Shown piece by piece: positions 3,285 through 34,473 of a stretch of 64,000 nt of DNA. The translations under genes and the position numbers were made by a program. Under the pieces are notes generated by a model. That model ran no database searches, was not told where the DNA came from, and saw only the letters and a list, made by a program, of their open reading frames with translations. How positions within the stretch are numbered: the stretch's first letter is position 1; every line of letters begins with the position of its first letter. The stretch comes from an uncultured Chloroflexia bacterium (lineage in GTDB: Bacteria > Chloroflexota > Limnocylindria > Limnocylindrales > CSP1-4), in assembly GCA_963809045.1 (NCBI GenBank), contig CAWEHW010000004.1, positions 2,007,594 to 2,071,593 of the forward strand, written 5' to 3'.

Positions 3285-4190
3285 TCACGACCGGTCGAGC
3301 TCCCGGTGGAAGACGGCGACCGGGCCGAAATCCTGGTCCCGCAACCAGGACGCGAGCTCCTCGCCGATGACGATCGACCGGTGGTACCCGCCGGTGCACC
3401 CGAGCCCGATCGTCAGGCGCGTCTTGCCCTCGGCGATGTACGCCGGAATGGTGAACGTCAGGAACCGCTTGATGAAGTCGAGGAACTCCGTCGCCACCGC
3501 CTGGCCAAGCACGAAGGCCCGAACCTCGTCGGTCAGGCCCGACTGGCGCCGCAGCTCGGCGACGTAGTACGGGTTCTGCATGAACCGGACGTCGAACACG
3601 AGGTCCGCCTCGAGCGGGATGCCGTACTTGTACCCGAAGCTGATGATCTGGATCGACAGCTGGTCGGCCCGGACCTCGGAAGCCAGCTGGGCGAACAGCC
3701 GTTCCCGGAGCTGGCGCAACGACAGCTCCGAGGTGTCCAGGACGAGGTCGGACTCGGCGCGGACGGGCTCCAGGATGCGTCGCTCCTCTGAGATCGAGGT
3801 GGCGATTCCGTGCTCGTCCCCCAGCGGATGCCGGTGGCGCGTTTCGCTGAACCGGCGGATCAGGACGTCGTCGCTCGCTTCGAGGAAGACCACGCGGGGC
3901 CTGATCCCGCGGCCCTCGAGGGCGCCGCGCATGGCCGCCAGGGCGAGCGTGGCATCGCCCGCTCGGACGTCGAGGACAATCGCGATGTGGGCGAACCGCT
4001 GACGGTCGGCCGATACGAGCTCGGCCAGGTCCGGCAGCAGCTCGCCGGGCAGGTTGTCGACAACCGTGTACCCGAGGTCCTCGAACAGCTTGGCGGCCGC
4101 CGTTTTTCCTCCGCCCGACAGGCCCGTCAGGATCACGACCGTCGGCGCCGCGATAGCACCGGCCTCCCGCGCGTCGGCCGGTCCGGTCAC
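3285..4190 (-). CDS. rapZ: RNase adapter protein RapZ (YvcJ, P-loop NTPase)
   Basis: A Walker A motif (VVILTGLSGGGKTAAAK) and a length and position upstream of yvcK-whiA that match RapZ. The GTG start overlaps the tatC stop in a GTGA junction. Confidence 0.9.
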   Translation of the reverse strand: MTGPADAREAGAIAAPTVVILTGLSGGGKTAAAKLFEDLGYTVVDNLPGELLPDLAELVSADRQRFAHIAIVLDVRAGDATLALAAMRGALEGRGIRPRVVFLEASDDVLIRRFSETRHRHPLGDEHGIATSISEERRILEPVRAESDLVLDTSELSLRQLRERLFAQLASEVRADQLSIQIISFGYKYGIPLEADLVFDVRFMQNPYYVAELRRQSGLTDEVRAFVLGQAVATEFLDFIKRFLTFTIPAYIAEGKTRLTIGLGCTGGYHRSIVIGEELASWLRDQDFGPVAVFHRELDRS

Positions 4191-5372: not shown

Positions 5373-6248
5373 CTAGGGTAGCACAGGGAGCCGCGCCGCC
5401 CAGTCACGGGCCGCGGCCGCAAGGCGTGCTTCGACGGTGTTCGCGACACCCGCCGGCGGTGGCTCCAGGGCCGAGCCGGCGATGCCTCGCGACACGTTGA
5501 CCAGGAGGGCGCCGCCCGCCTGCGCGCCGCCATCCGCACCTCGCGACGGCCCGTGGCGAAGGACCGCGTCGACGTCGCCGCCCTGGGTCCCGACACCGGG
5601 GATCAGGAACGGCAAGGCGGGCACGGCGGCGCGGATCTGCGACAACTCATCGGGGGCGGTGGCGCCGACCACCAAGCCGACCGTTCCACCCGGACCCCAT
5701 GCCGCAACGCGGCGGGCCACGCGCAGGTACAACGGCTCCTGCGGCGCGCCGGTCGCCGGGTCCGCCTCGATGGTGAGGCCCTGCAGCTCGGCCGCGCCCG
5801 GGTTCGACGTCCGGCACAGCACATAGGCGAACCCGTCCGGCCGAACGAAGAACGGCTCGAGGCCCTCCGCCCCGACATACGGACTGACCGTCACGGCATC
5901 GGCCCCGAGGACGTCGAACAACGCGATCGCCTGTCGCGCAGCCGTCGTGCTGATGTCACCGCGCTTCGCGTCGGCCACGACAGGGAGATCCGACGGGATC
6001 CTCGACCGGATCCGCTCGAGAGCGGCCATCCCGGCTGCTCCGAACGCCTCGAAGAATGCAAGGTTCGGCTTGATGGCCGCGGCATACGGCAACGTGGCCT
6101 CGACGAGGATCGTGGCGAACCGCTCGATCCCGGCCAGGTCACGCGAGAAGCCCTCCGGAAGGCGTTCAGGATCAGGGTCGATCCCGACGCACAGGACGGT
6201 CCCCACGGCCGCCGAGCGCTGCACGAGGCGCTCGAGGTAGGCAGTCAC
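5373..6248 (-). CDS. pyrF: orotidine 5'-phosphate decarboxylase (type 2, long form)
   Basis: Carries the VLCVGIDP, IKPNLAFFEA, DAKRGDI and IPGVGTQGG motifs. The GTG start at 6248 overlaps the stop of the upstream TolB-like gene (GTGA). Confidence 0.85.
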   Translation of the reverse strand: MTAYLERLVQRSAAVGTVLCVGIDPDPERLPEGFSRDLAGIERFATILVEATLPYAAAIKPNLAFFEAFGAAGMAALERIRSRIPSDLPVVADAKRGDISTTAARQAIALFDVLGADAVTVSPYVGAEGLEPFFVRPDGFAYVLCRTSNPGAAELQGLTIEADPATGAPQEPLYLRVARRVAAWGPGGTVGLVVGATAPDELSQIRAAVPALPFLIPGVGTQGGDVDAVLRHGPSRGADGGAQAGGALLVNVSRGIAGSALEPPPAGVANTVEARLAAAARDWAARLPVLP

Positions 6249-11819: not shown

Positions 11820-13673
11820 CTAGGCGTCGAGCGTGGCCTTGATCCTGGCGGCAAGGGACGATCCGATCCCGGGCACCGCGGCGATCTGTTCGACAGGCGC
11901 ATCGCGGACTCGCTTGATCGATCCGAACACCTTGAGGAGCTCGCGTTTGCGCTTCGGTCCCACCCCCGGCAGGTCGTCGAACGCTGACCGGACGGCGCGC
12001 CGAGCTCGAAGCCCACGGTGGTAGGTGATCGCGAACCGGTGTGCCTCGTCACGGAGCCGCTGCACCAGGTACAGCGCGGGCGATGTCGATGGCAGCACGA
12101 TCGGGTCCGAACGATCCGGCAGGAACAGCTCCTCGCGTTCCTTGGCGAGACCGGCCAGCGGCAGGTCGTGCAGACCGAGCGCGTCCAGGGTTTCCTTGGC
12201 AGCACTGACCTGGCCCTTGCCACCGTCGACGATCACGAGGTCGGGCATCGACCAGCGACGGGCCTCCTCGCTCCCCTCCTCGCCCGTCCGCACCGTCCGG
12301 AACCGCCGGCGCAACACCTCCTGGTGACTCGCGAAGTCGTTCGGGCCGGTCACCGTCTTGATCCGGAATCGACGGTACTCGCCGGAGCGCGGTTTCCCGT
12401 CCTCGAACACGACCATGCTGCCGACCGATTCGCTGCCCTGGAAGTTGCTGATGTCGTAGCACTCGATCCGCAGGGGCGGCCCGGTCAAGCCGAGTGCGTC
12501 GGCCAGTTCTTCGAGGGCCGCCAGGGTCTTGCCGTGATCGGCCAGCCAGCGGGCCTGCTCCCGCGCGAGGGTCTCGCTGGCGTTGCGCGTGGCCAGGGCC
12601 ATGAGCTCGCGCTTCTCGCCGCGTTGCGGAATTCGCACGTGCACCGGGCCGCCTCGGCGCTCCGCCAGGAAGGTCTCCAGGACGCTGCCATCGAGCGTCA
12701 CGGTCGGGACGTAGATCTCGCGCGGAATGGACCCGGCACGCGTGTAGTACTGCTCGAGAAAGCTCGTCAGCACTTCGTCGTCCGATGCCTCCCGGACCGC
12801 GTCCAGGAGGAACACGTCCCGGCCGACCATCTGGCCGTTGCGGATCGCAAAGAGCTGGATCGCGGCCTGGTTGTCCTGTCGCGCGACCCCGACGAGGTCG
12901 AGCTCGGTACGCGCGAACGCCGCCATCTTCTGGCTCTCCATCGTGCGCTCGATCGCGCGAATCTTGTCTCGCGCGGTGGCGGCGCGCTCGTACTCCATCC
13001 GGTCCGCGGCGACGCGCATCTCGCGTCCGAGCGCCTTCACCAGCGACTCCTGGCGGCCCTCGAGGAACTGCTCCACCTGGTCGATGTCGGCGCGGTAGGC
13101 ATCCTTCGAGATCGCTTCGATGCAGGGGCCCTGGCAGCGCTTGATGTGGTAGAGCAGGCACGGCCGCTGGAGCGCCCGCTCGCCCTCGCGGATGTCGATC
13201 GTGCAGGTGCGGAACGGAAAGAGCCGCCGGACGAGGTTCATCGATTCGTCGACGCTCGAGGCCGATCCGTACGGCCCGAAGTACCGGCTGCCGTCGTTGA
13301 CCAGCTTCCGGGTCCGTTCGACGCGCGGGAAGTCGTCGCTGAGCGTGACCTTGATGTACGGATAGCTCTTGTCGTCCTTGAGGCGGACGTTGAAGCGCGG
13401 TCGATAACGCTTGATCAGGTTCATCTCGAGGAGGAGCGCCTCGGAGACCGAGTCGGTCTGGGTTACTTCGACGTCGACGATCCGGTCGATGACGGCGCGG
13501 ATCCGGTGTCCCTCGAGCGGGCCGGCGTGGCCCTTCTGCCAATAGCTCCGGACGCGGTGCTTGAGGCTCTGCGCCTTGCCGACGTACACGACATCGCCCC
13601 GGTCGTCCTTCATGAGGTAGACGCCGGGTTTGTCGGGCAGCTTGGCGAGGGCCGACGCGAGCTCGGGGGTCAC
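11820..13673 (-). CDS. uvrC: excinuclease ABC subunit C
   Basis: An N-terminal GIY-YIG nuclease (KPGVYLMKDDRGDVVYVGKAQSLKHRVRSY), a UVR domain and a C-terminal RNaseH-like/HhH region. It is 617 aa. Confidence 0.95.
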   Translation of the reverse strand: MTPELASALAKLPDKPGVYLMKDDRGDVVYVGKAQSLKHRVRSYWQKGHAGPLEGHRIRAVIDRIVDVEVTQTDSVSEALLLEMNLIKRYRPRFNVRLKDDKSYPYIKVTLSDDFPRVERTRKLVNDGSRYFGPYGSASSVDESMNLVRRLFPFRTCTIDIREGERALQRPCLLYHIKRCQGPCIEAISKDAYRADIDQVEQFLEGRQESLVKALGREMRVAADRMEYERAATARDKIRAIERTMESQKMAAFARTELDLVGVARQDNQAAIQLFAIRNGQMVGRDVFLLDAVREASDDEVLTSFLEQYYTRAGSIPREIYVPTVTLDGSVLETFLAERRGGPVHVRIPQRGEKRELMALATRNASETLAREQARWLADHGKTLAALEELADALGLTGPPLRIECYDISNFQGSESVGSMVVFEDGKPRSGEYRRFRIKTVTGPNDFASHQEVLRRRFRTVRTGEEGSEEARRWSMPDLVIVDGGKGQVSAAKETLDALGLHDLPLAGLAKEREELFLPDRSDPIVLPSTSPALYLVQRLRDEAHRFAITYHRGLRARRAVRSAFDDLPGVGPKRKRELLKVFGSIKRVRDAPVEQIAAVPGIGSSLAARIKATLDA

Positions 13674-13731
13674 GCTTCGATCCTAGGGCAAGATCGCGCG
13701 TGGAGTCGTCAGGAACCCGACGGGCAAACGA

Positions 13732-13776: not shown

Positions 13777-15534
13777 CTACGGGATACGGGTGATCTGGTT
13801 CAGCACCGCGACCGGCGTGTATGGGTCGTGGGCGGCCAGATACTGCTCGAGCGCGACCAGGTCGTCCAGGCCCGTCTGCTCCGCGGTCCCAACCGTGAAG
13901 CCCGGGAAGTCGTCCCCACCTCCGGCCAGGAAGTTGTTGGCGGTTACGCGGTAGGTCGCGACGGGATCGATAGCGACGCCGTTCAGCATCATGTTGCTGA
14001 CCTTGCTGCCGATCGCCGCCGATGCGGTCCAGGTGTACGTGAAGCCAGCCGACACCGGCAGGACAAGCGTCCTGGGATTGCCGGCCTGGGCGCCGGAGCT
14101 GACCACGAACTGCTGTTCGAGAATGGTCTTGATCTGGGCGCCTGTAAAGGTCTTGGTCGTGACGATGTTGCTGAACGGCTGGACGCCGAACGCTTCGCCA
14201 TGGGTGACCTCTTCTGGCCCAGGCGCCAGGAACGCCAGGTCGGAGCGCATCCCACCCGGGTTCATGAACGCGATCTGCGCACCAGCCCCAAGCGACGATT
14301 CGAGCTGTGCGTCCGCGATGAGGCGGCCCATCGTCGACTCACCCGCTGCATTCGCGGCCCGGGTCAACGGCCCGGTGATATGGCCGACGACTTCGGCGGC
14401 GATCGGACCGGCGAACACGTTGTACTCCGCAACCAGCGCGGTCAGGTCCGCCGCCTTCGCGACGTCCTGGGTCACGATCCGGTTGTTGACCAGGATCGGT
14501 CCGACGATGTCCTTCGTCGCACGGCTGACCGTGATGTCGATATCCGTGATGAGCCGACCCTGGGCGGCGGCTCCGGTGACGACCTTGCCATCGATGACGC
14601 AGTTGACGGCCCAGTTGGTGTGGCCGGTGATCACGATGTCGATCTCGTCATCCATCGCGTCGACGATCGGCGGCAGGGCACCCGTGGGGTTGTTGCAGCT
14701 GTTGATGGCGTTGACGTCGCCCGCACCATTGCCGGCCGCGCCGATGGTGCCGCCCTCGTGGAGGAGCACGATGATCGTCTCGATGCCTTGCCCCTGAAGC
14801 ACGGGGACGAGCGCGTTGACGCTCTCGGCCTCGTCGAGGAAGTTGACGCTGGCGATCCCGCTGGGCGAGACGATGAGCGGCGTGCCCTCGAGGGTCATGC
14901 CGACGAACGCGACCTTGACGCCGTTGAAGTGGCGGATCGCGTACGGCGGGAAAATCGTTTCACCAGTGTCCTTGTAGGCCACGTTTGCCGCGAGGAACTG
15001 GAACTCCGCGCCATCGAAGCCGTCACCGTCGCCGCACCCGTCCACCGGGTGGCAGCCGCCGTTCTGCATCCGCAGGAGCTCGTCGACGCCCTCGTCGAAC
15101 TCGTGGTTCCCGACCCCGTTGTAGTCGAGGTCCATCAGGTTGAACGCCTCGATCGAAGGCTCGTCGTGGAACAGCGCCGACAGCAGCGGTGTGGCGCCGA
15201 TCAGGTCGCCCGCCGAGACGAAGACCGTGTTCTCGTTCTCGGCGCGGAGGTTCCGCACGTGGGTGGCGAGATACTCGACGCCGCCGGCCGGGATACAGGC
15301 GGGGGCGACGCACTGGCCCGACGTCAACGCCCCGATGCGACCACTCGAGCTGGCGGTTGGCGGCACGACCTCGAGCTGGCCGTGGAAGTCGTTCAGGCCA
15401 AGGATCTGGATCTGGGTCGTCTTGGCGCGTGATGCGGCTCGTCCATCGTCCGGAGCGTTCGCGGACGTGATCGGGGCACCCACGCCAATCACAAGCGCGG
15501 CGAACAAGACTGTGGCTGCTCGCAGTCGTTTCAT
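13777..15534 (-). CDS. secreted 5'-nucleotidase / 2',3'-cyclic-nucleotide phosphodiesterase (calcineurin-like metallophosphatase plus 5'-nucleotidase C-terminal domain)
   Basis: A signal peptide (MKRLRAATVLFAALVIGVGAPITSANA), metallophosphatase motifs (LGLNDFHG, GNHEFD, GHTN) and a UshA-like C-terminal domain. Confidence 0.85.
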   Translation of the reverse strand: MKRLRAATVLFAALVIGVGAPITSANAPDDGRAASRAKTTQIQILGLNDFHGQLEVVPPTASSSGRIGALTSGQCVAPACIPAGGVEYLATHVRNLRAENENTVFVSAGDLIGATPLLSALFHDEPSIEAFNLMDLDYNGVGNHEFDEGVDELLRMQNGGCHPVDGCGDGDGFDGAEFQFLAANVAYKDTGETIFPPYAIRHFNGVKVAFVGMTLEGTPLIVSPSGIASVNFLDEAESVNALVPVLQGQGIETIIVLLHEGGTIGAAGNGAGDVNAINSCNNPTGALPPIVDAMDDEIDIVITGHTNWAVNCVIDGKVVTGAAAQGRLITDIDITVSRATKDIVGPILVNNRIVTQDVAKAADLTALVAEYNVFAGPIAAEVVGHITGPLTRAANAAGESTMGRLIADAQLESSLGAGAQIAFMNPGGMRSDLAFLAPGPEEVTHGEAFGVQPFSNIVTTKTFTGAQIKTILEQQFVVSSGAQAGNPRTLVLPVSAGFTYTWTASAAIGSKVSNMMLNGVAIDPVATYRVTANNFLAGGGDDFPGFTVGTAEQTGLDDLVALEQYLAAHDPYTPVAVLNQITRIP

Positions 15535-19612: not shown

Positions 19613-22600
19613 CTAGCGGGCTTTCGCTGCGGCGACGGCTCGCTTCGTCGAGGGTTTGATCCGGACACCGGGTCGCTCGCCATGACCATTGGTCCGGCCC
19701 CGACCCGCTTCCTCCGCGAAGGTGATGTCGGACAACGGGACGAGAGGCTCCCCGCGCAGGACCCGGGCCAGGTACTCCCCGGTTGCCGATCCTTCCACCC
19801 GGGCCACCTGTTCCGGCGTTCCCTTCGCGATGATCCGACCGCCGCGATCGCCGCCTTCAGGACCGAGGTCCACGATCCAGTCCGCGGTCTTGATCACGTC
19901 CAGGTTGTGCTCGATGACGAGGACCGTGTTGCCGCCGTCGACCAGCCGATGCAGGACCTCGAGGAGCTTCTCCACGTCGGCGAAATGCAGCCCGGTCGTC
20001 GGTTCGTCGAGGACGTACAGGGTCCGCCCGGTCGCCCGCCGCGACAGCTCCGTCGAGAGCTTCACGCGCTGGGCTTCACCGCCGGACAGCGTCGTCGCGG
20101 GCTGCCCGAGGTGGACGTATCCCAGGCCCACGTCGTTCAGCGTCTGGAGTTTGGCCCGCACGTTCGGGACCGCACTGAAGAAGTCGAGCGCCTCTGCGAT
20201 CGTCATCTCGAGCACGTCGGCGATCGACTTGCCCTTGAAGTGGATCTCGAGCGCTTCCCGGTTGTACCGCTTGCCGTGGCAGACCTCGCACGAGACGTAG
20301 ACGTCGGGCAGGAACTGCATCTCGATCTTGAGGATCCCGTCGCCCTTGCAGTTCTCGCAGCGGCCGCCCTTGACGTTGAAGCTGAACCGGCCGGGCGTGT
20401 ACCCACGGACTCGCGCCTCCGGAACGCCCGCGAACAACTCCCGGATTGGCGTGAACAGGCCGACGTAGGTCGCCGGGTTGGATCTCGGCGTCCGCCCGAT
20501 CGGGCTCTGGTCGATCTCGATGATCTTGTCGACGTGTTCGGCGCCCTTGAGCGAGTCGTGGGCGCCGACCGGCTCGCGTGATCCGTTCAACTCGCGGGCG
20601 AGCCCCCGGTACAGGACATCCGTGACGAGCGTGCTCTTGCCGCTCCCCGAAACGCCGGTGACGGCCACGAACGTGCCGAGTGGCACCGTGAAGTCGACGC
20701 TTCGGAGGTTGTGCTCGCGAGCCCCGCGAACCGCCAGGGTCTTGGCATTGCCTTTTCGGCGTGCCTTGGGGATCGGGACGGACCGGTCGCCGCGCAGGAA
20801 CGCCCCCGTGATGGAGCGCGGTTCGGTTAGAACCGCTTCGAGCGGGCCGTTCGCGATGATCTCGCCGCCGTGCTCCCCGGCTCCGGGACCGATGTCGACC
20901 ACCCAGTCCGCCGTCCTGATCGTTTCCTCGTCGTGCTCCACGACCAGGACCGTGTTCCCGAGGTCTCGCAATCGGGTGAGGGTCGCGATCAGCTTGGCGT
21001 TGTCGCGCTGGTGGAGCCCGATCGACGGCTCGTCAAGGATGTACAGGACGCCCATGAGCGTGGTGCCGATCTGGGTTGCCAGCCGGATCCGCTGGGCTTC
21101 GCCACCCGACAGCGTTACGCTCGTCCGGTCGAGGGTGAGGTAGTCGAGCCCGACGTCGACCAGGAAGCCGAGCCGGGCCACGATCTCCTTGAGGAGCTGC
21201 TGGGCGATCGTGCGCTCGCGTTCGGTCAGCGTCCTGGTCAGGTTCGTCGCCCAGTCCAGCGCGTCCGTGATCGACAGCGTCGAGATGTCCCAGACGTTCT
21301 GGTCGCCGATGGTCACTCCCAGGATCTCGGGCCTGAGTCGCTTGCCGCCGCAGGTGGGACACGGCCGCGTGACCATGTACTTCTCGAGCTCGGTCTTGAC
21401 GTAGTCCGAGTCGGTTTCGCGATAGCGCCGTTCGAGGTTGGTCACGGCACCTTCGAACGTTGCCGTGTAGGTGTTCTCGCCACGCTCGTGGCGGTAGCGA
21501 ACGACGACCTTCTCGTCCTTCTTGGCGTACAGGACGTAGTCGACCGCTTCGGCGGGCAGACTCCGGACGGGCGCCTTGACGTCCCACCCATGGGCCGAGC
21601 AGATCGCCTCGAGGATCTTCAGCCGCCACGAGGCATCCGTCGGCATCTTGGCCCACGGCACCAGGGCGCCGTTGAGCAGGCTCTTCGATCGGTCCGGGAT
21701 GACAAGCCCCGGATCGATTTCCAGCCTGGTGCCGAGCCCCGTGCACGAGGGGCATGCGCCGTGGGGTGAGTTGAAGGAGAAGCTGCGCGGCTCGAGCTCG
21801 TCGACGGTGAAGTCGTCGTATGGGCAGCTGTACTTCTCGCTGTAGCGCCGCTCCTCGAAGGCCGGCGGCTCGTCGTCGCGCGGCGCCGGAGCAATCTGGA
21901 CAACGCCCTCACCGAGGCGGAGCGCCGTCTCGATCGAGTCGGCCAATCGGCCGGCGTCCGGGTCCGGAATGACCACACCGGTCGCCGGGTCGATCGGCCG
22001 GCCGTCCTGTGCGTGCTGCGCGCCGTCGGGCGCCTCGGCGTGACGCACGATGTAGCGATCCACCACGACTTCGATCGTGTGGCGCTTGTACTTGTCGAGC
22101 GTTGGTGCCTCGGCGATGTCGTAGAGCTCGCCATCGACGCGGAGCCGGACGTATCCCTGACGCCGCGCGGCGTCGAACACCCGGTCACCTTCGGTCTTGC
22201 GGTCCTTGATCAGTGGGCCAAGGACCAGCAGCCGGGTGCCTTCGGGCAGTTCCAGGACCTGGTCGACGATCTGCTGGACCGACTGGCGCTCGATCGCATG
22301 GCCATTTGGACAGTGCGGGATGCCGATCCGGGCAAACAGCAGCCGGAGATGATCGTAGATCTCGGTGACCGTCCCGACCGTCGAACGGGGGTTGCGCGAC
22401 GCGCCCTTCTGGTCGATCGAGATGGCCGGTGACAGGCCGTCGATCTGGTCGACGTCCGGCTTCTCCATCTGCCCGAGGAACTGCCGGGCGTAGGCGCTCA
22501 GGCTCTCGACATATCGACGCTGGCCCTCCGCGTAGATGGTGTCGAAGGCCAGGCTGCTCTTGCCCGAGCCGGACAGCCCGGTGATGACGACCAACCGGTC

Positions 22601-22675
22601 CCGCGGGAATGCGACGTCGACATTCTTGAGGTTGTGTTCGCGCGCTCCACGCACGACGAGCTGATCCTGGGGCAC
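19613..22675 (-). CDS. uvrA: excinuclease ABC subunit A
   Basis: GAREHNLKN, duplicated ABC ATPase modules ([25 protein letters not shown]), a zinc-finger CxxC pair and LSGGEAQR signature motifs. It is 1020 aa with a roughly 50-60 aa C-terminal tail, and has a GTG start. Confidence 0.95.
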
Positions 22676-22704
22676 ACCTCAAGTCTAGCGGATCACGAGC
22701 CTTT

Positions 22705-22717
22705 CGAACAAGTGTTC
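22705..22717. promoter_or_regulatory. candidate LexA/SOS box (Cheo-box type CGAACAAGTGTTC) upstream of uvrA
   Basis: GAAC-N4-GTTC with RNRY spacer, 30 nt upstream of the uvrA GTG. It is followed 18 nt later (gene strand) by a TAGACT -10-like hexamer. Confidence 0.6.
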
Positions 22718-22765
22718 CGTTACGCACCGTCCTCCGCCGCGCAGGTAGTAGCGGATGCGAAGGAA

Positions 22766-22793
22766 GGCCCGCCGGTCTTGCGGCCGGCGGGCC
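22766..22793 (-). terminator. GC-rich hairpin (10-bp stem GGCCCGCCGG/CCGGCGGGCC) downstream of the VWA surface-protein gene
   Basis: A perfect 10-bp stem about 40 nt after the stop at 22832 and upstream of the uvrA SOS box. It is likely to insulate uvrA from read-through. Confidence 0.45.
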
Positions 22794-22831
22794 ATCTGCG
22801 TGTTGGCAGGAGGGCGTGAGCCGCCCCTGGG

Positions 22832-24748
22832 TTAGCGGCGCCGGGTCGGCGTTGCGAGCCGCATCCTGCGCGGGGTCACGAACGCGACGATCAGCGCGGT
22901 CGCGGCCAATGCGAGGATTGGAAGGAGGAGCGAAGGCTCGTCGCCAACGGCTCCGTTCATGACCGAGTCGGTCGGTGGGAGCGTGAGCGCCGGTGTGGCG
23001 ACCTCGGAGAGGACTTCGCCCGTTGGCGTGGGCTCAGGCGTCGGCTCCGGGGTCGGAGACGGCGTTGGCTGAGGCGTAGGAGTTGGCGTCGGCTGCGGCG
23101 TCGGCTCAGGCGTGGGCGTCGGCTCAGGCGTTGGCGTCGGGGTCGGCTCCGGGGTCGGAGTCGGCGTAGGCTCCGGCGTTGGCGTCGGGGTCGGCTCCGG
23201 GGTCGGCGTTGGCGTCGGCTCCGGTGTCGGCGTGGGTTCAGGCGTGGGGGTTGGTGTCTGCTCCGGGGTCGGAGTTGGCGTGGGCTCAGGCGTCGGCGTT
23301 GGTGTCGGCTCGGGTGTCGGGGTTGGCGTCGGTTCAGGCGTGGGCGTTGGTGTCGGCTCCGGGGTCGGAGTCGGCGTCGGCTCAGGCGTGGGCGTGGGCG
23401 TCGGCTCAGGCGTGGGCGTTGGTGTCGGCTCCGGGGTCGGAGTCGGCGTGGGTGTCGGGGTCGGCTCCGGGCAACCAATCGCCCGGAACAGGTCGCTGGT
23501 GAAGCCCGTGAAGTCTGCCGGCAGGAAGGCGTCGCCTCCGCCGATCTGGGTCATGACGGCCTGCGCCCAGGCGGCATCGCCCGCGGCCGAGAACGGCAGG
23601 TTCGTGTCGCCGGGATCGCCGGCGGTGCTGAGGTAGACGGCCTTGACGATGTACTGGCTGGCCCCCGTGCGCGCGTCGTCGGCGGCGCCGATCGCGGCGT
23701 TGGCAGCCTGAAGCCACGTGTTCGGATTGCCCTGGTCGTCGCTGTGGGAATTCGGCTTGTTGGGTGACCCGTCGGTGACGACGAACATGACGTTCGGGGC
23801 ACCGGCGCGGTCGTTGCCGGCGTTGCCGGCGCCGGTCGTGATGCCGGCAGACGTTGGCGTCAGGCCGGTTGGGCCGGACAGCGCCGTTACTTGTGCATTG
23901 AAAGCGGCGGCATCGACGTAACCGGCGGTCAGCGTGGAGGCAGAGCTCCCGTTGAACCGCGTCCCCGAGTAGAGGCCCGAGCCGCCACCCGCCTCGAACG
24001 CGGTCACGAAGCCGTTGATGCCGTTCTTGAGCTGCGCCAGGTTCGACGGGACTGAGCCCTGGGCACCGATCGAGCCCGACATGTCGATCACGAAGTTGAA
24101 GTCGGCCGTGTTGCAGACGTCTGCGGTGATCGCCGGGTTGGAGGCTGAGCTCTGGTTGATCGACTGGTATGAAACGGTTACCTCGAGACGGTCGACCTTT
24201 CCGATCGCCGAGTCGGTGCAGTTGCTGCCATCCTGGAACTGGAGCTTGACCCGGAAGGTGCCGTTCGATAGGTCGTTCGCGTCCCAGACCCTCGACCACG
24301 TGTCGGATGCTCCGCCGGCCGTGAGCCAGCTCTGGCTGTTCGTCAGGTTGACCGTTTTCGCGGACGTATAGCTGCTGCCGCCATTGGCGGAGAGGCGAAC
24401 GTCGATCTGGCATCCGGACGTGTCGCCATCCGAAAAGGCCTCGAGACGGACGGTGATGCCATCCACGATCGAACCTGCCGGAACGACCAGGCTGAAGTCG
24501 CGATACGCCTGCTCTTCGTTGTCCGTCGGCGTGGACGCGTACGCGTTGTCATCGGCGGCCCCGACCGCGTTGGCGGGGTTGTCCCACTGGTTGGGTGCGG
24601 TCGCGGCGCCGGCCGGCTGGGCACTGGTGTTGGCGGCCAGCGCGGTCGCCGTGAAGGCCATGGCCATCGCCATGGTGAGGATGAGTGTCGAGCCGCCAAG
24701 AGCAGCCATACGGCCGCGCAGGCGATGCGTGCGAAGTCCCCCGAACAT
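22832..24748 (-). CDS. secreted cell-surface protein: N-terminal beta-rich domain, von Willebrand factor A domain, (EPTPTPTP)n linker, C-terminal TM anchor with basic tail
   Basis: A signal peptide ([38 protein letters not shown]). A VWA region ([12 protein letters not shown]...[10 protein letters not shown]). About 150 aa of EPTPTPTP repeats. A C-terminus [32 protein letters not shown]. The ORF track starts at 24877, and I chose the ATG at 24748 preceding the signal peptide. Confidence 0.8.
23019..23474 (-). repeat. in-frame tandem repeat of about 24 nt encoding roughly 19 copies of (EPTPTPTP) within the VWA surface-protein gene
   Basis: The protein shows [10 protein letters not shown]...(EPTPTPTP)n...PTG. 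The same DNA read on the plus strand gives the spurious (GVGSGVGV)n ORF 23112..23636. Confidence 0.9.
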
Positions 24749-24920
24749 GAAACACCTCGATGGATGAGTGCTGGCCGGTAGTACGTACCGACACTCGTCC
24801 CCGAGACGAGCAAGGCGACTATCTGGAGCGGTCCTGGTGCTGTCCAGTACCTTCGGCTGAGCGCGAGTCCACCGCACTGCTACCCAGGGCTCCGGTCCGT
24901 TCGGATCGGCCCTCCGATTG

Positions 24921-25015: not shown

Positions 25016-27379
25016 TCACCGCCGTCGGCGTCCCGAACGGGCGGGCCGGGAGCCGGTCCGCTTGATGACATTCGGCGTGACCGTGCGGTCCCACGTCGGG
25101 CGGTCGAGCCAGCGCGCTTGCCAGCCGCCGTCGTCGTCATGCTCGTCCCGGATCCCTGGCAGCCAGTCGGCGACCGTGCCTTCGTCGATCCCGGGCACCC
25201 CATCGGCGTTGTCCGCGGGTTCCTCGTCCGCAGGGAGGACGGTCACGCTGGTGACTTCGAACGCGGGCCCCGCAGCGGCCCGTTCAGCGGTGCGCCGGCT
25301 GCGGTTGCGATCGGCGGCCCCCGTCAATCCCCGGCCGGCCGCTTCCCGGGCGGCCCGTTCCGCGGCCCGGCCCACGGTGATCGAGGCATCCTGCTCGAGG
25401 ACGCGCATCCGGATCTGCTGGATCTCATCACGGAGCGCCGCGGCCCGCTCGAACTCCAGCTGCTTGGCCGCGTTCTTCATCTCGGCTTCCATCCGCGAGA
25501 CCAACGCCTCGATCTTGCCCCGGTCCGCCTCGCTGAATTCGCCGCCCCGCTCGGAGCTGTACATCGTGGTCGACTCGGCGACGGCTCGGAGACGCTCGTT
25601 GAGGTCACGGATGCCCTTGATGATCGTCGTGGGCTCGATGCCCCGTTCGAGGTTGTACTTCGTCTGGTAGATCCGCCGGCGCTCCGTCTCGTCCATGGCG
25701 ACCCGCATCGATTCGGTGACCGTGTCCGCGTACATGATCACCTCGCCCCCGATGTTCCTGGCCGCCCGGCCGATCATCTGGATCAGCGACCAGGCGGACC
25801 GCAGGAAGCCCTCCTTGTCGGCATCGAGGATCGCGACGAGCGTCACCTCCGGCAGGTCGATGCCTTCCCGGAGCAGGTTGATCCCGACCAGGACGTCGAA
25901 CACGCCCAGGCGGAGGTCGCGCAGGATCGCCACGCGCTCGAGGGTGTCGACCTCGCTGTGGAGGTACTGGACCTTGACGCCGAGCTCCTTGAGGTAGTCG
26001 GTGAGGTCCTCGGACATCTTCTTGGTCAGCGTGGTGACCAGGGCGCGCTCGCCTCGTTCCACGCGCGTCCGGATCTCCTCGAGGAGGTCGTCGATCTGGC
26101 CCTCGGTCGGGCGGACGGTGATCGGCGGATCGACGATCCCGGTTGGCCGGATCAGCTGCTGGACGTTGCGCTGGCTGCGTTCCAGCTCGTACGGCCCGGG
26201 CGTCGCGCTCATGTAGATCGCCTGGTGGACGGTCGCCTCGAACTCCTCGAACGTCAGTGGCCGGTTGTCGAGCGCGGACGGCAGGCGGAAACCGAAGTCG
26301 ACCAGGATCTCCTTGCGGGTTCGGTCGTTCTTGTACATGCCCACGACCTGCGGGATCGTCATGTGCGACTCGTCGACGACGAGCAACCAGTCCGGCGGGA
26401 AGTAGTCGAGCAGGGTCCACGGCCGCGAGCCCGCCTCGCGTCGCGCGAGATGGCGCGAGTAGTTCTCGATCCCGGTGCAGTAGCCGAGCTCACGCATCAT
26501 TTCGAGGTCGAACGTCGTCCGCTGGCGCAGCCTCGCGCCCTCGAGGGCCCGGCCCTCGGCTTCAAGCTCGCCGACGCGGACCTCCATCTCGGCGTCGATG
26601 TCGACGATGGCTTCCTTGAGCTTGTCCGCCGGCGTGACGTAGTGGGTCGCCGGGTAGACGTTGGTTTCCTTGCGCTCCGCCAGGAGCTCGCCGGTCAGCG
26701 GGTCAAGCTCGGTGATCCGCTCGACGCTGTCGCCGAAGAACTCGATCCGGACGATGTGCTCCTCCGATGCCGGTTGGAGCTCGAGCGTGTCGCCCCGAAC
26801 ACGGAAGCGCGCGCGGCTGAGGGCCTGGTCGTTGCGCTGGTACTGGAGGTCGACCAGGTGTCGGAGCACGGCGTCGCGGCGGTACTGCCCGCCGACCCGG
26901 AGCTTGAGCACCGTTGCGCCGTAGTCGACCGGGGCGCCCAGGCCGTAGATGCACGACACCGATGCGACGATGATCACGTCGCGACGCTCGAACAGGGCGT
27001 GCGTCGCCGCATGCCTGAGCCGGTCGATCTCGTCGTTCCGGCTCGAGTCCTTCTCGATGTAGGTGTCGCTGCGAGGCAGGTAGGCCTCGGGCTGGTAGTA
27101 GTCGAAGTAGCTGACGAAGTACTCGACCGCGTTCTCGGGGAAGAACTCGCGGAACTCGGCATACAGCTGCGCGGCAAGCGTCTTGTTGTGGGCGAGGACG
27201 AGCGTCGGGCGGTTTGCCCGAGCGATCAAATGACTCATCGAGAACGTCTTGCCCGAGCCTGTGACTCCGAGGAGGACCTGGTGGTTGAAGCCCTTCTCGA
27301 CGCCATCGACCAGCGCCTCGATTGCCGCCGGCTGGTCGCCGGTCGGCTCAAATGGGGCGACGAGCTTGAAGTCGGGCAT
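25016..27379 (-). CDS. uvrB: excinuclease ABC subunit B (with about 120-aa C-terminal extension)
   Basis: A helicase core ([12 protein letters not shown]), a beta-hairpin region and a UVR domain ([21 protein letters not shown]). It is 787 aa versus about 670-700 typical. Confidence 0.95.
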
Positions 27380-27409: not shown

Positions 27410-27422
27410 CGAACAGGTGTTC
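27410..27422. promoter_or_regulatory. candidate LexA/SOS box (CGAACAGGTGTTC) upstream of uvrB
   Basis: The same motif at the same relative position (about 31 nt upstream of the uvrB ATG), followed after 18 nt by a TAAACT -10-like hexamer. Confidence 0.6.
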
Positions 27423-27710
27423 TGTCGCTGCCCGGCTGGCTCACGCGGGCCTCAAGGCTCCAGGCGCTGGTGGCTCGAGCGTTTCTTGCGTCCCACGCAA
27501 GAACCTTGCTCCGGCGTGCGTGGCATGCGCGAATGAGCCGCCGAGGGTGCGGAGGCGACCGGTGCGGGTGCTTCCGCGGCAAGAAACCCGCCTTCATGGG
27601 CGAAATCGATCCAGATCGTGCATGGGATGCAGTTCCGCAACAGATTTGAGGACCTGGTCGGCTGCCGACTGACTACTCGTGCATCTGGTGCAAGCCAGCG
27701 GGTCGGGGGC

Positions 27711-31527: not shown

Positions 31528-34473
31528 CTACCCGGCGATCGGGGCGATCGGTGCCTCGATGGGCAGCTCGTCCGCCTCGGCGGCGATCGCGTCGGCGCGG
31601 GTCAGCGGCGTCATCGATTCCCAATCGTCCCCGACCTTGACGTCGACGATCAGGGGGATCGACAGCGGCAGCGCGCCTTCCATGGTCTCGCGCACCAGCG
31701 CGGCTAGCGGCTCCACCTCCGCGCGCGGGACCTCGAACAACAACTCGTCGTGGACCGACAGCAGCAGCCGGGCTCGGGAACCTTCGGCCGCGAGGCGCTC
31801 CGCGACGCGGATCATCGCGATCTTCTGGATGTCCGCGGCCGTGCCCTGGATCGGCATGTTGATCGCCATCCGCTCCCCCGCCCCGCGCAACGCCGGGTTC
31901 GATGCGCGTAGCTCCGGGATCTGGCGCTTCCGCCCGAGCAACGTCTCGACGAACCCCTGCGCCTTGGCCTGTTCCTTGATCGCCATCATGTAATAGCTGA
32001 TGCCGGAGTAGGCTGCGAAATAGCTGTTGATGAACTCCTGGGCCTCGTTCCGCGGGATGTTCGCCCGCGAGGCCAGGCCGAAGTCGCTCATCCCGTACGC
32101 GAGCCCGAAGTTGACCATCTTGGCCATCGACCGTTCGTCCTTCGTGATCGCGTCGGGATCCTTGTGCAGCACGCGGGCCGCCGTTTCGCGATGGATGTCC
32201 GCCTTGCGGGCGAAGGCGTCCTTGAGGTGCTCGTCGCCGGACACGTGGGCCAGGATCCGCAACTCGATCTGGGAGTAGTCGGCGGCCAGCAGGACCAGGT
32301 CGGGCTCGCCGGCCACGAACGCCCGACGGATCTTGCGCCCGAGCTCGGTGCGGATCGGGATGTTCTGCAGGTTCGGGTCCGATGAGGACAGGCGGCCGGT
32401 GGAAGCCACGGCCTGGTGGAACGTGGTGTGGAGCCGTCCGTCCGCCGCCATCAGGCTGGGCAGGGCCTCGACGTACGTCGAACGGAGCTTCGTGTACACC
32501 CGCCACGCGAGCAGCTTGTCGATCATCGGGTGCGCGGGGCGGAGCTCCTCGAGGACGGAGGCATCGGTCGAGTACCCCGTCTTGGTTCGCTTGCCCTTGG
32601 GCAGGTTCAGCTCGAAGAACAGGATCTGCTCGAGCTGCTTCGGGCTGCCGAGGTTGAACTCGTGACCGACGTCGACGTAGATCTCCTGCTCGAGCCTGGT
32701 GATCTCTGCGCCGAACTCGCGGTCGAGCAGCTCCAGGGCGGCGAGATCAAGCGCGACGCCCGTCGCCTCCATCCGGGCGAGCACGGGGATCAACGGCAGC
32801 TCCACCTCCTGGAAGAGGCGATCGAGCTTGACCTCCTCGAGGCGGCGCTCGAGCGGCTCACGAACCGCGATCGCCGACAGGGCTTCGAGCCCGGCGCGTG
32901 CCGTCGCCGGGAGCTCGGCGGGCGGCGGCAGGATCTGGTCGAGGTTCTCGGCGAGGATGTCCGCGATCGTCTGACTGCGCAGGGCCGCGTTGAGGATGTA
33001 CGCCGCGATCTGCGTGTCGAAGGCAATCGGGTGGGGCGTCGACGAGGGGTCGTCCGCAAATGCCGCCACGAGGACCGACTTGACTTCGTGCCCCACGAGC
33101 TGGCTGCCGAGTCGATGCAGGAGCTGTCGGAGCGCGGTCGAGGCCTCGGGTCCGTCCGCCGCGACCACGCGACCGTCCGACCCGGCGACCGCCAGCGCCA
33201 GCGGGGTGCCGCGTCGCGGCCTTGGATCGTCCGCCTGCAGGGCCACGCCGACCGCCGGCTGCGCCTCGAGCCACGGGGCGAGGTCTTCGATCCGGTCTGC
33301 GCCACGGACCTCGATCCGCCCCGGGTCCACGATCGCCGCGGCCAGGGCTGTGGGCAGGTCCTCCGCCGGTTCGTATGGCTGATTCGCGGCACCATTGATG
33401 CCGTTGGCCGAGTGGTCGCTCTGAACCGGCCCGGCCACCGCATCGAAATCGAGCCTGAGCTGGAGCTCACCACCCGCCTGCCGGGATACGGTCCGGCTCG
33501 CCCCCCAGCCGTCGGGGCGTCCCGCCACTCGTGCCGCCGGGACGTAGCCGCTCTCGGCGACCGTCTTGAGCCGCTCGGATCGGAGCTCGGGCGACTCGCC
33601 GGCCATCGGTGGCAGCCGCTCGATCAGCGTCCGGAACTCGTACTCGCGGAAGAGCCGGACGACCGTGTCCCGGTCGTAGTCGCCGAGACGGGCCGCTTCG
33701 AGGTCCAGCTCGACCGGCAGGTCGCGGATGATCCGCGACAGCTCGTGGCCCATCGCGATCTGCTCGCGGTGCTCGAGGAGCTTGTCGCGCAGCTTCTCCG
33801 GCTTCACGTCGTCGATCCGGGCGAACAGCGTGTCGAGGTCGCCGAATTCGGCGATCAGCCTGGCCGCGGTTTTCTCCCCGACCCCTGGCACGCCCGGGAT
33901 GTTGTCGGTCGGGTCGCCCTTGAGTGCCTTGTAGTCGATCATCTGGTCGGGTCGCAGCCCGAACCGCTCGTTGATCCGGTCGATGTCGTACATGACCGTG
34001 TTCTCGACGCCGGATCGCGTCGTCATCAACCGGACACGCGGCGTGACCAGTTGGAGCATGTCCAGGTCGACGGTCACGATGGTGGTTTCCAGATCGTCGT
34101 TCGAGTCGAGCTTCTGGGTGATCGTGCCGATCACATCGTCCGCCTCGTAGCCCTGCATCTCGTAGACCGGGATCCGGAGCGCTTTGACGACCTCCCGGAC
34201 CTTGGGGAACTGGTCGCGCAGGTCGTCGGGCATCTTCTGGCGGGTGGCCTTGTAGGCCGCGAATTGCTCGTGGCGGAAGGTCGGCCCGGGCAGGTCGAAC
34301 GAGACGGCAAGGTAGTCCGGCTGGAGGTCGGCGATGCCGCGCAGGACGATGCTGGCGAAACCGAAGACGCCGTTGACGAGCTCGCCACGGGAGGTCGTCA
34401 GCGGTGGAAGGGCGAAGTAGCCGCGATAGACGAGCCCGTAGCCGTCGAGCAGCATCAGGCGTTCGGTGGGCAC
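31528..34473 (-). CDS. polA: DNA polymerase I
   Basis: An N-terminal 5'-3' exonuclease (LLDGYGLVYRGYFA), a 3'-5' exo-like region and polymerase motifs (DYSQIELRILAH, QVHDELLFE). It is 981 aa. Confidence 0.95.
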   Translation of the reverse strand: MPTERLMLLDGYGLVYRGYFALPPLTTSRGELVNGVFGFASIVLRGIADLQPDYLAVSFDLPGPTFRHEQFAAYKATRQKMPDDLRDQFPKVREVVKALRIPVYEMQGYEADDVIGTITQKLDSNDDLETTIVTVDLDMLQLVTPRVRLMTTRSGVENTVMYDIDRINERFGLRPDQMIDYKALKGDPTDNIPGVPGVGEKTAARLIAEFGDLDTLFARIDDVKPEKLRDKLLEHREQIAMGHELSRIIRDLPVELDLEAARLGDYDRDTVVRLFREYEFRTLIERLPPMAGESPELRSERLKTVAESGYVPAARVAGRPDGWGASRTVSRQAGGELQLRLDFDAVAGPVQSDHSANGINGAANQPYEPAEDLPTALAAAIVDPGRIEVRGADRIEDLAPWLEAQPAVGVALQADDPRPRRGTPLALAVAGSDGRVVAADGPEASTALRQLLHRLGSQLVGHEVKSVLVAAFADDPSSTPHPIAFDTQIAAYILNAALRSQTIADILAENLDQILPPPAELPATARAGLEALSAIAVREPLERRLEEVKLDRLFQEVELPLIPVLARMEATGVALDLAALELLDREFGAEITRLEQEIYVDVGHEFNLGSPKQLEQILFFELNLPKGKRTKTGYSTDASVLEELRPAHPMIDKLLAWRVYTKLRSTYVEALPSLMAADGRLHTTFHQAVASTGRLSSSDPNLQNIPIRTELGRKIRRAFVAGEPDLVLLAADYSQIELRILAHVSGDEHLKDAFARKADIHRETAARVLHKDPDAITKDERSMAKMVNFGLAYGMSDFGLASRANIPRNEAQEFINSYFAAYSGISYYMMAIKEQAKAQGFVETLLGRKRQIPELRASNPALRGAGERMAINMPIQGTAADIQKIAMIRVAERLAAEGSRARLLLSVHDELLFEVPRAEVEPLAALVRETMEGALPLSIPLIVDVKVGDDWESMTPLTRADAIAAEADELPIEAPIAPIAG

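Follow-up and report, generated by a model that had tools for sequence, protein, structure and literature searches.

What kind of regulation governs uvrA and uvrB, and from what kind of promoter, in a bacterium of the Limnocylindria, an abundant, uncultured soil and freshwater class of Chloroflexota? The question is raised by a 64-kb stretch of DNA (hereafter the window; G+C content 68.6%) in which each of the two genes is preceded by a palindrome with the core GAAC-N4-GTTC. This core is the LexA motif of Firmicutes and Actinobacteria, and variants of it are found in Chloroflexi (PMC4951493). An initial annotation of the window had read the palindromes as LexA boxes that control near-leaderless transcripts. 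On the evidence set out below, we consider it very probable that they are LexA (SOS) operators and that LexA bound to them occludes the -35 region, in promoters of a -10-only, leaderless or near-leaderless type.

The LexA-type 13-mers that had been reported upstream of the two genes are both found exactly where they were placed, CGAACAAGTGTTC on the plus strand at 22705-22717, upstream of uvrA, and CGAACAGGTGTTC on the plus strand at 27410-27422, upstream of uvrB. Both genes are encoded on the minus strand. The uvrA coding sequence (19613-22675) specifies a 1020-aa protein with the Pfam domains UvrA_DNA-bind, UvrA_inter and ABC_tran, and begins with a GTG at 22675; we placed this start through relatives, whose homologous codon is ATG or GTG and precedes CCCCAGGA. 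Read in gene orientation, the uvrA promoter consists of the box GAACACTTGTTC (22706-22717), 18 nt, the -10 hexamer TAGACT (22687-22682), 6 nt and the GTG. The uvrB coding sequence (25016-27379; 787 aa; Pfam UvrB_inter, Helicase_C, UvrB and UVR) starts with an ATG at 27379, and the N-terminus of the protein is kept in relatives. Its promoter has the same order of elements: the box GAACACCTGTTC (27411-27422), 18 nt, the -10 hexamer TAAACT (27392-27387), 7 nt and the ATG. The gap of exactly 18 nt between box and hexamer, a claim of the initial annotation, is thus confirmed at both genes. The accompanying claim that the hexamer lies 7-8 nt from the start holds only if the count takes in the first base of that codon, the actual gaps being 6 nt at uvrA and 7 nt at uvrB. 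With respect to the extended consensus (CGAACRNNYGTTCG or TCGAAC-N4-GTTCGA), one flank matches per site, the ends reading TCGAAC...GTTCCG at uvrA and CCGAAC...GTTCTG at uvrB.

Both proteins carry extra sequence at the C-terminus. In UvrA, about 45 aa follow the part to which proteins of other phyla align. In UvrB, some 130 residues with no Pfam match follow the UVR motif (25016-25400, minus strand; residues ~660-787); relatives in the lineage align to residue ~780, and proteins of other phyla only to ~657.

Both promoters lie downstream of terminator-like hairpins. The one on the uvrA side (22766-22793, minus strand) is GC-rich, has 13-nt arms that are 92% complementary, folds with z = -3.9 and is followed by UUCCUU; the upstream vWA gene ends in it, and it would insulate the uvrA promoter. 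The other, which has a T-run (27587-27604, minus strand), lies 3' of the gene that precedes uvrB and 5' of the uvrB promoter. With a terminator-like hairpin 5' of each promoter, uvrA and uvrB would each need a promoter of their own and be transcribed independently. Searching the whole window against Rfam returned only a tRNA, with no structured RNA in either uvr intergenic region. A 94-nt tRNA-Pro called by ARAGORN at 14983-15076 (minus strand), within a 5'-nucleotidase coding sequence, is a probable false positive, as Rfam does not support it. Upstream of the uvrB box, at a distance of about 60 nt, there is a perfect 9-bp inverted repeat with a 3-nt loop (TTCTTGCGT / ACGCAAGAA, 27483-27503). 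The gene between uvrA and uvrB (22832-24877, minus strand) encodes a secreted vWA-domain protein with a C-terminal hydrophobic anchor and a Pro/Thr/Glu repeat of about 190 aa; its DNA carries a tandem repeat at 23025-23470 with a period of 24/72.

Might the two palindromes be functionless chance matches? Shuffling the window gave an expectation of 0.94 GAAC-N4-GTTC cores, which agrees with the earlier estimate of about one by chance. The same estimate had been set beside a count of one other core, in rapZ; the window actually holds four cores and not three, one at 14107-14118 having been missed. Of the two cores away from the uvr genes, that at 3693-3704 lies inside rapZ, a gene confirmed by Pfam, and that at 14107-14118 inside the 5'-nucleotidase gene. 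We ruled both out as operators, since they are intragenic and fit the chance expectation, and the one close relative whose flanks could reach as far as 14107 (L001) has no core except that at uvrA. The copies of the motif that LexA leaves unbound in M. tuberculosis are all intragenic (PMC3381160). These two chance-like sites are what an explanation by accident can draw on for the other two. Against it, the joint probability of finding by chance a core no more than 60 nt upstream of both uvrA and uvrB is about 8e-7, and the boxes are conserved in orthologous promoters whose background has diverged. We regard the chance explanation as having practically no likelihood; in practice it is already refuted.

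The extent of this conservation became apparent from a comparison of upstream regions. A scan of one genome per species gave Chloroflexota MAGs as the closest UvrA relatives, L001 at 89%, L034 at 86% and L002 at 81% ('Candidatus Limnocylindrales'), with the rest at 66% or less; the Limnocylindrales are placed in the class Candidatus Limnocylindria of the Chloroflexota, so that the window comes from a Limnocylindria-like bacterium and not from an actinobacterium. Neither the UvrA nor the UvrB of the window had an exact match on record. To these genome loci we added 80 metagenome loci retrieved with UvrB. At uvrA, the box, 18 nt and a TAnAnT hexamer are present in 9/9 loci (the window and eight relatives with at least 76% UvrA identity), and in the relatives the hexamer stands 6-10 nt ahead of the ATG or GTG at the homologous codon. 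Column identity in the alignment of the uvrA promoters reaches 0.99 in the box core and 0.87 in the -10, compared with 0.59 in the spacer and 0.49 in the 5' flank, and the T, A, A and T of the -10 are invariant across the nine sequences. When we searched 322 kb of lineage DNA for the whole module (a box with at most one mismatch, 17-19 nt, TAnnnT), it occurred 20 times, in every case directly upstream of uvrA or uvrB; four other exact cores were present, all intragenic, with about 4.7 expected by chance. The sequence elements and their spacing are conserved in the lineage and, in the DNA sampled, are associated exclusively with uvrA and uvrB.

The same comparison altered how the inside of the box is to be read. 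Importance had been attached to the identical composition of N4 (A-R-G-T) in the two boxes, a point that we do not uphold: because the two central positions vary among relatives, the identity is not meaningful in itself. What is conserved inside N4 is its outer pair: box position 5 is a purine and position 8 a pyrimidine in 20/20 lineage sites, as they are in the LexA consensus of Gram-positive bacteria. The reading of the palindromes as LexA boxes is upheld, by the match to the motif, by their location at the promoters of classical SOS genes and by their conservation in the lineage amid diverging surroundings.

The box at uvrB has a more varied history. Among the 19 lineage loci with at least 73% UvrB identity whose 5' end was included, 11 have a box, which lies 17-23 nt ahead of the -10 and most often 18 nt ahead of it. 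The box is absent from the other eight (73-90% UvrB identity, L102 having 90%) within the 300 nt examined, or 140 nt for L086. These box-less loci are L102, L084, L085, L086, L097 and L093-L095, and each has a -10 near the uvrB start. Control through the box is thus dispensable for uvrB. From this distribution, the uvrB operator appears to have been repeatedly lost or gained, and the uvrA operator to have been kept. In L088-L090, the uvrB promoter retains the module of box, 18 nt and -10 despite a leader of 25-27 nt with a GAGG, so that the operator/-10 module is the conserved unit and the leaderless state varies. Beyond the lineage, boxes are found at uvrA or uvrB, 0-19 nt from the -10, in more distant Chloroflexota, in one Dormibacterota MAG and in actinobacterial MAGs. 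In a sister clade of Chloroflexota (L006, L008, L099-L101 and L103), the uvrB box directly abuts the -10, as GAACGCCTGTTC followed by TAGAAT, and uvrA has neither a box nor an obvious promoter, which suggests that this clade may have a different operon layout.

We next consider the promoters themselves. TAnnnT hexamers are rare in the window, with 61 on both strands of 64 kb, and about ten of them lie 6-9 nt ahead of the start codons of long ORFs, including those of uvrC, polA and a DUF6941 gene; examples near such starts are at 13685(-), 18161(-), 31530(-), 34485(-), 42227(-), 42280(+) and 36349(+). Leaderless-type -10 geometry is present at 5/31 first start codons, against 0.06 expected. The uvrC gene (11820-13682, minus strand, assigned by Pfam) has TAGGAT, 6 nt and GTG, and polA (31528-34473, minus strand, also assigned by Pfam) has TACACT, 6 nt and GTG; neither has a box. 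One further TAnnnT hexamer lies 15 nt ahead of tRNA-Leu. The other leaderless-type promoters in the window have neither the box nor a recognisable -35, and a scan with the sigma-70 consensus did not call the uvrA and uvrB promoters because they contain no -35 match. Judged by their sequences, the promoters of this genome appear to be -10-only and of leaderless type as a habit.

This habit qualifies one of the arguments for a special uvrA/uvrB architecture. The matched distance from -10 to start codon had been taken as peculiar to the two genes, but it recurs at uvrC, polA and about six other box-less genes. The -10-to-start geometry is therefore a general feature of promoters here, and the spacing between box and -10 alone is specific to uvrA and uvrB. 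The near-leaderless reading itself stands, as the -10 hexamer and the gap of 6-10 nt to the start are conserved. A GAGG is present only 1 nt ahead of the uvrA GTG, too close to act as a ribosome-binding site. We predict leaderless or near-leaderless transcripts for uvrA and uvrB, since the geometry fits and there is no usable Shine-Dalgarno.

A rival reading, which would account for the fixed 18-nt spacing, takes the box as a positive element of the promoter instead of a repressor site: it would stand in for a -35, or bind an activator at a site whose centre is near -36.5. An 18-nt spacing in every uvrA promoter compared, and as the mode at uvrB, is tighter than simple occlusion requires, and other promoters in the window have no recognisable -35. 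Those other leaderless-type promoters, however, do without anything of the kind, and uvrB is driven without the box in eight relatives. Moreover, the box lies 0, 2, 4, 12, 22 or 23 nt from the -10 in relatives, a variability at odds with both a phased activator and a -35 element. We consider a positive element most unlikely. The strict 18-bp phasing of palindrome and -10, common to two unrelated promoters and retained across the lineage, could also mark a dedicated SOS promoter design, in which the operator doubles as an upstream contact for polymerase or is read by a regulator that is not a canonical LexA; to this we give a small chance.

The reading that we prefer is repression by LexA. The box, which spans about -42 to -31 when numbered from the predicted transcription start, would occupy the usual place of a -35 element, so that LexA bound there as a dimer would deny RNA polymerase access to the promoter. 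Once DNA damage had activated RecA, RecA-stimulated self-cleavage of LexA would lift the block. Transcription would then begin 6-7 nt past the TAnnnT, on the GTG or ATG itself or no more than a few bases from it, and the products would be leaderless or near-leaderless uvrA and uvrB mRNAs. That the protein bound there is LexA we infer from the motif, from the two genes concerned and from precedents published for the phylum; we likewise infer repression, induction by damage and the exact transcription start at uvrA and uvrB.

A search for the regulator gene bears on whether another protein could be responsible. Neither lexA nor recA is present in the 64-kb window or in the lineage loci examined, which comprise uvr-region DNA only. 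A tblastn search of 161 loci and the window, in which LexA of E. coli and of B. subtilis and RecA of E. coli (approximate sequences) were the queries, matched only an unrelated MAG, L015. A profile search with B. subtilis and M. tuberculosis LexA returned mycobacterial matches only. A search among representatives at 50% identity gave 150 LexA clusters, of which 30 were named, all of them from Actinomycetota, Streptomyces, Corynebacterium or Firmicutes and none from this lineage. A second LexA profile, built from three equidistant, composition-matched representatives, led again to Acidimicrobiales, and one further LexA subfamily resides in a locus of actinobacterial type, lexA-LysM-nrdR. The supplementary material published with a study of Verrucomicrobia LexA contains no Chloroflexi LexA sequence, and our literature search found no paper tying Limnocylindria to LexA. 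The failure to retrieve a lexA from the lineage reflects the fact that the lineage DNA searched consists of uvr regions only, and is not evidence of absence.

An actinobacterial-type locus, L161 (ENA ERZ28669063 ctg97109), served as a positive control for the motif: it has three exact cores in 14.5 kb, all at lexA/recA promoters, with those at 5387, 5420 and 13589 divided between the lexA/LysM intergenic region (two) and recA (one). In the same locus, the LysM and nrdR genes are divergent from lexA, and recA contains an intein.

A rival reading would assign the boxes to a different DNA-binding protein, one that has GAAC-N4-GTTC specificity, is not LexA and governs the nucleotide excision repair genes. 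Such a protein would be in keeping with the lack of lexA in the lineage DNA examined and with LexA searches that reached Actinomycetota and Firmicutes only, and other high-GC bacteria do have damage regulators besides LexA, for example PafBC. But the missing lexA is explained by the limits of the search; the core, the spacing and the purine and pyrimidine positions are identical to those of the LexA motif that experiments have defined in related phyla; and uvrA and uvrB are canonical SOS genes. We think a regulator of this kind decidedly unlikely, and retain LexA as the protein that would bind the boxes.

The arrangement can be set beside known systems. In the work of Fernandez de Henestrosa et al. 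(2002), LexA of D. ethenogenes reportedly recognised GAAC-N4-GTTC at the promoter of lexA itself and at uvrA, and did not bind at recA. In S. venezuelae, uvrA has a LexA ChIP peak and is bound by LexA in vitro (PMC9380542). The boxes described here have the same 12-bp core as the Cheo box or SOS box operators of B. subtilis uvrBA and recA, S. venezuelae uvrA, and Dehalococcoides ethenogenes uvrA and lexA, and also have in common with those LexA operators the inner purine and pyrimidine of positions 5 and 8, the promoter-proximal location and the target genes. They differ from known LexA operators in belonging to a Limnocylindria-like class, in their conserved 18-nt phasing, in their predicted leaderless transcripts and in agreeing with the extended consensus on a single flank of each site.

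The lexA gene of M. tuberculosis is translated from a leaderless transcript (PMC2897130); there, as is predicted here, an SOS box adjoins a promoter whose transcription start is the start codon. The induction of M. tuberculosis uvrA, on the other hand, is independent of RecA and LexA (PMC3381160), unlike the present case, in which both uvrA and uvrB bear the box. LexA control of uvrA is thus lineage-dependent, and LexA control of nucleotide excision repair is not universal in high-GC Terrabacteria. For the promoters, the closest likeness is to genomes with many leaderless mRNAs such as that of Deinococcus deserti, in which a large proportion of genes have a TAnnnT -10 a few nucleotides ahead of their AUG or GUG (PMC4007540). 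In promoter geometry the window is similar, with TAnnnT close to the starts of about ten genes.

We conclude that the evidence supports a conventional SOS operator arrangement, newly documented in a poorly known class of Chloroflexota, with two modest additions, the conserved 18-bp phasing of operator and -10 and the plasticity of uvrB control. The current understanding of the SOS response is unchanged. With this finding, the range of the Gram-positive-type LexA motif, and of LexA control over nucleotide excision repair, comes to include the Limnocylindria, and -10-only, leaderless-type promoters are documented as common in the lineage. It also provides a clean operator model for genome scans: GAACR-NN-YGTTC, 18 nt, TAnnnT. 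For the lineage itself, uvrA would be a stable member of the regulon, and control of uvrB one that has repeatedly been gained or lost.
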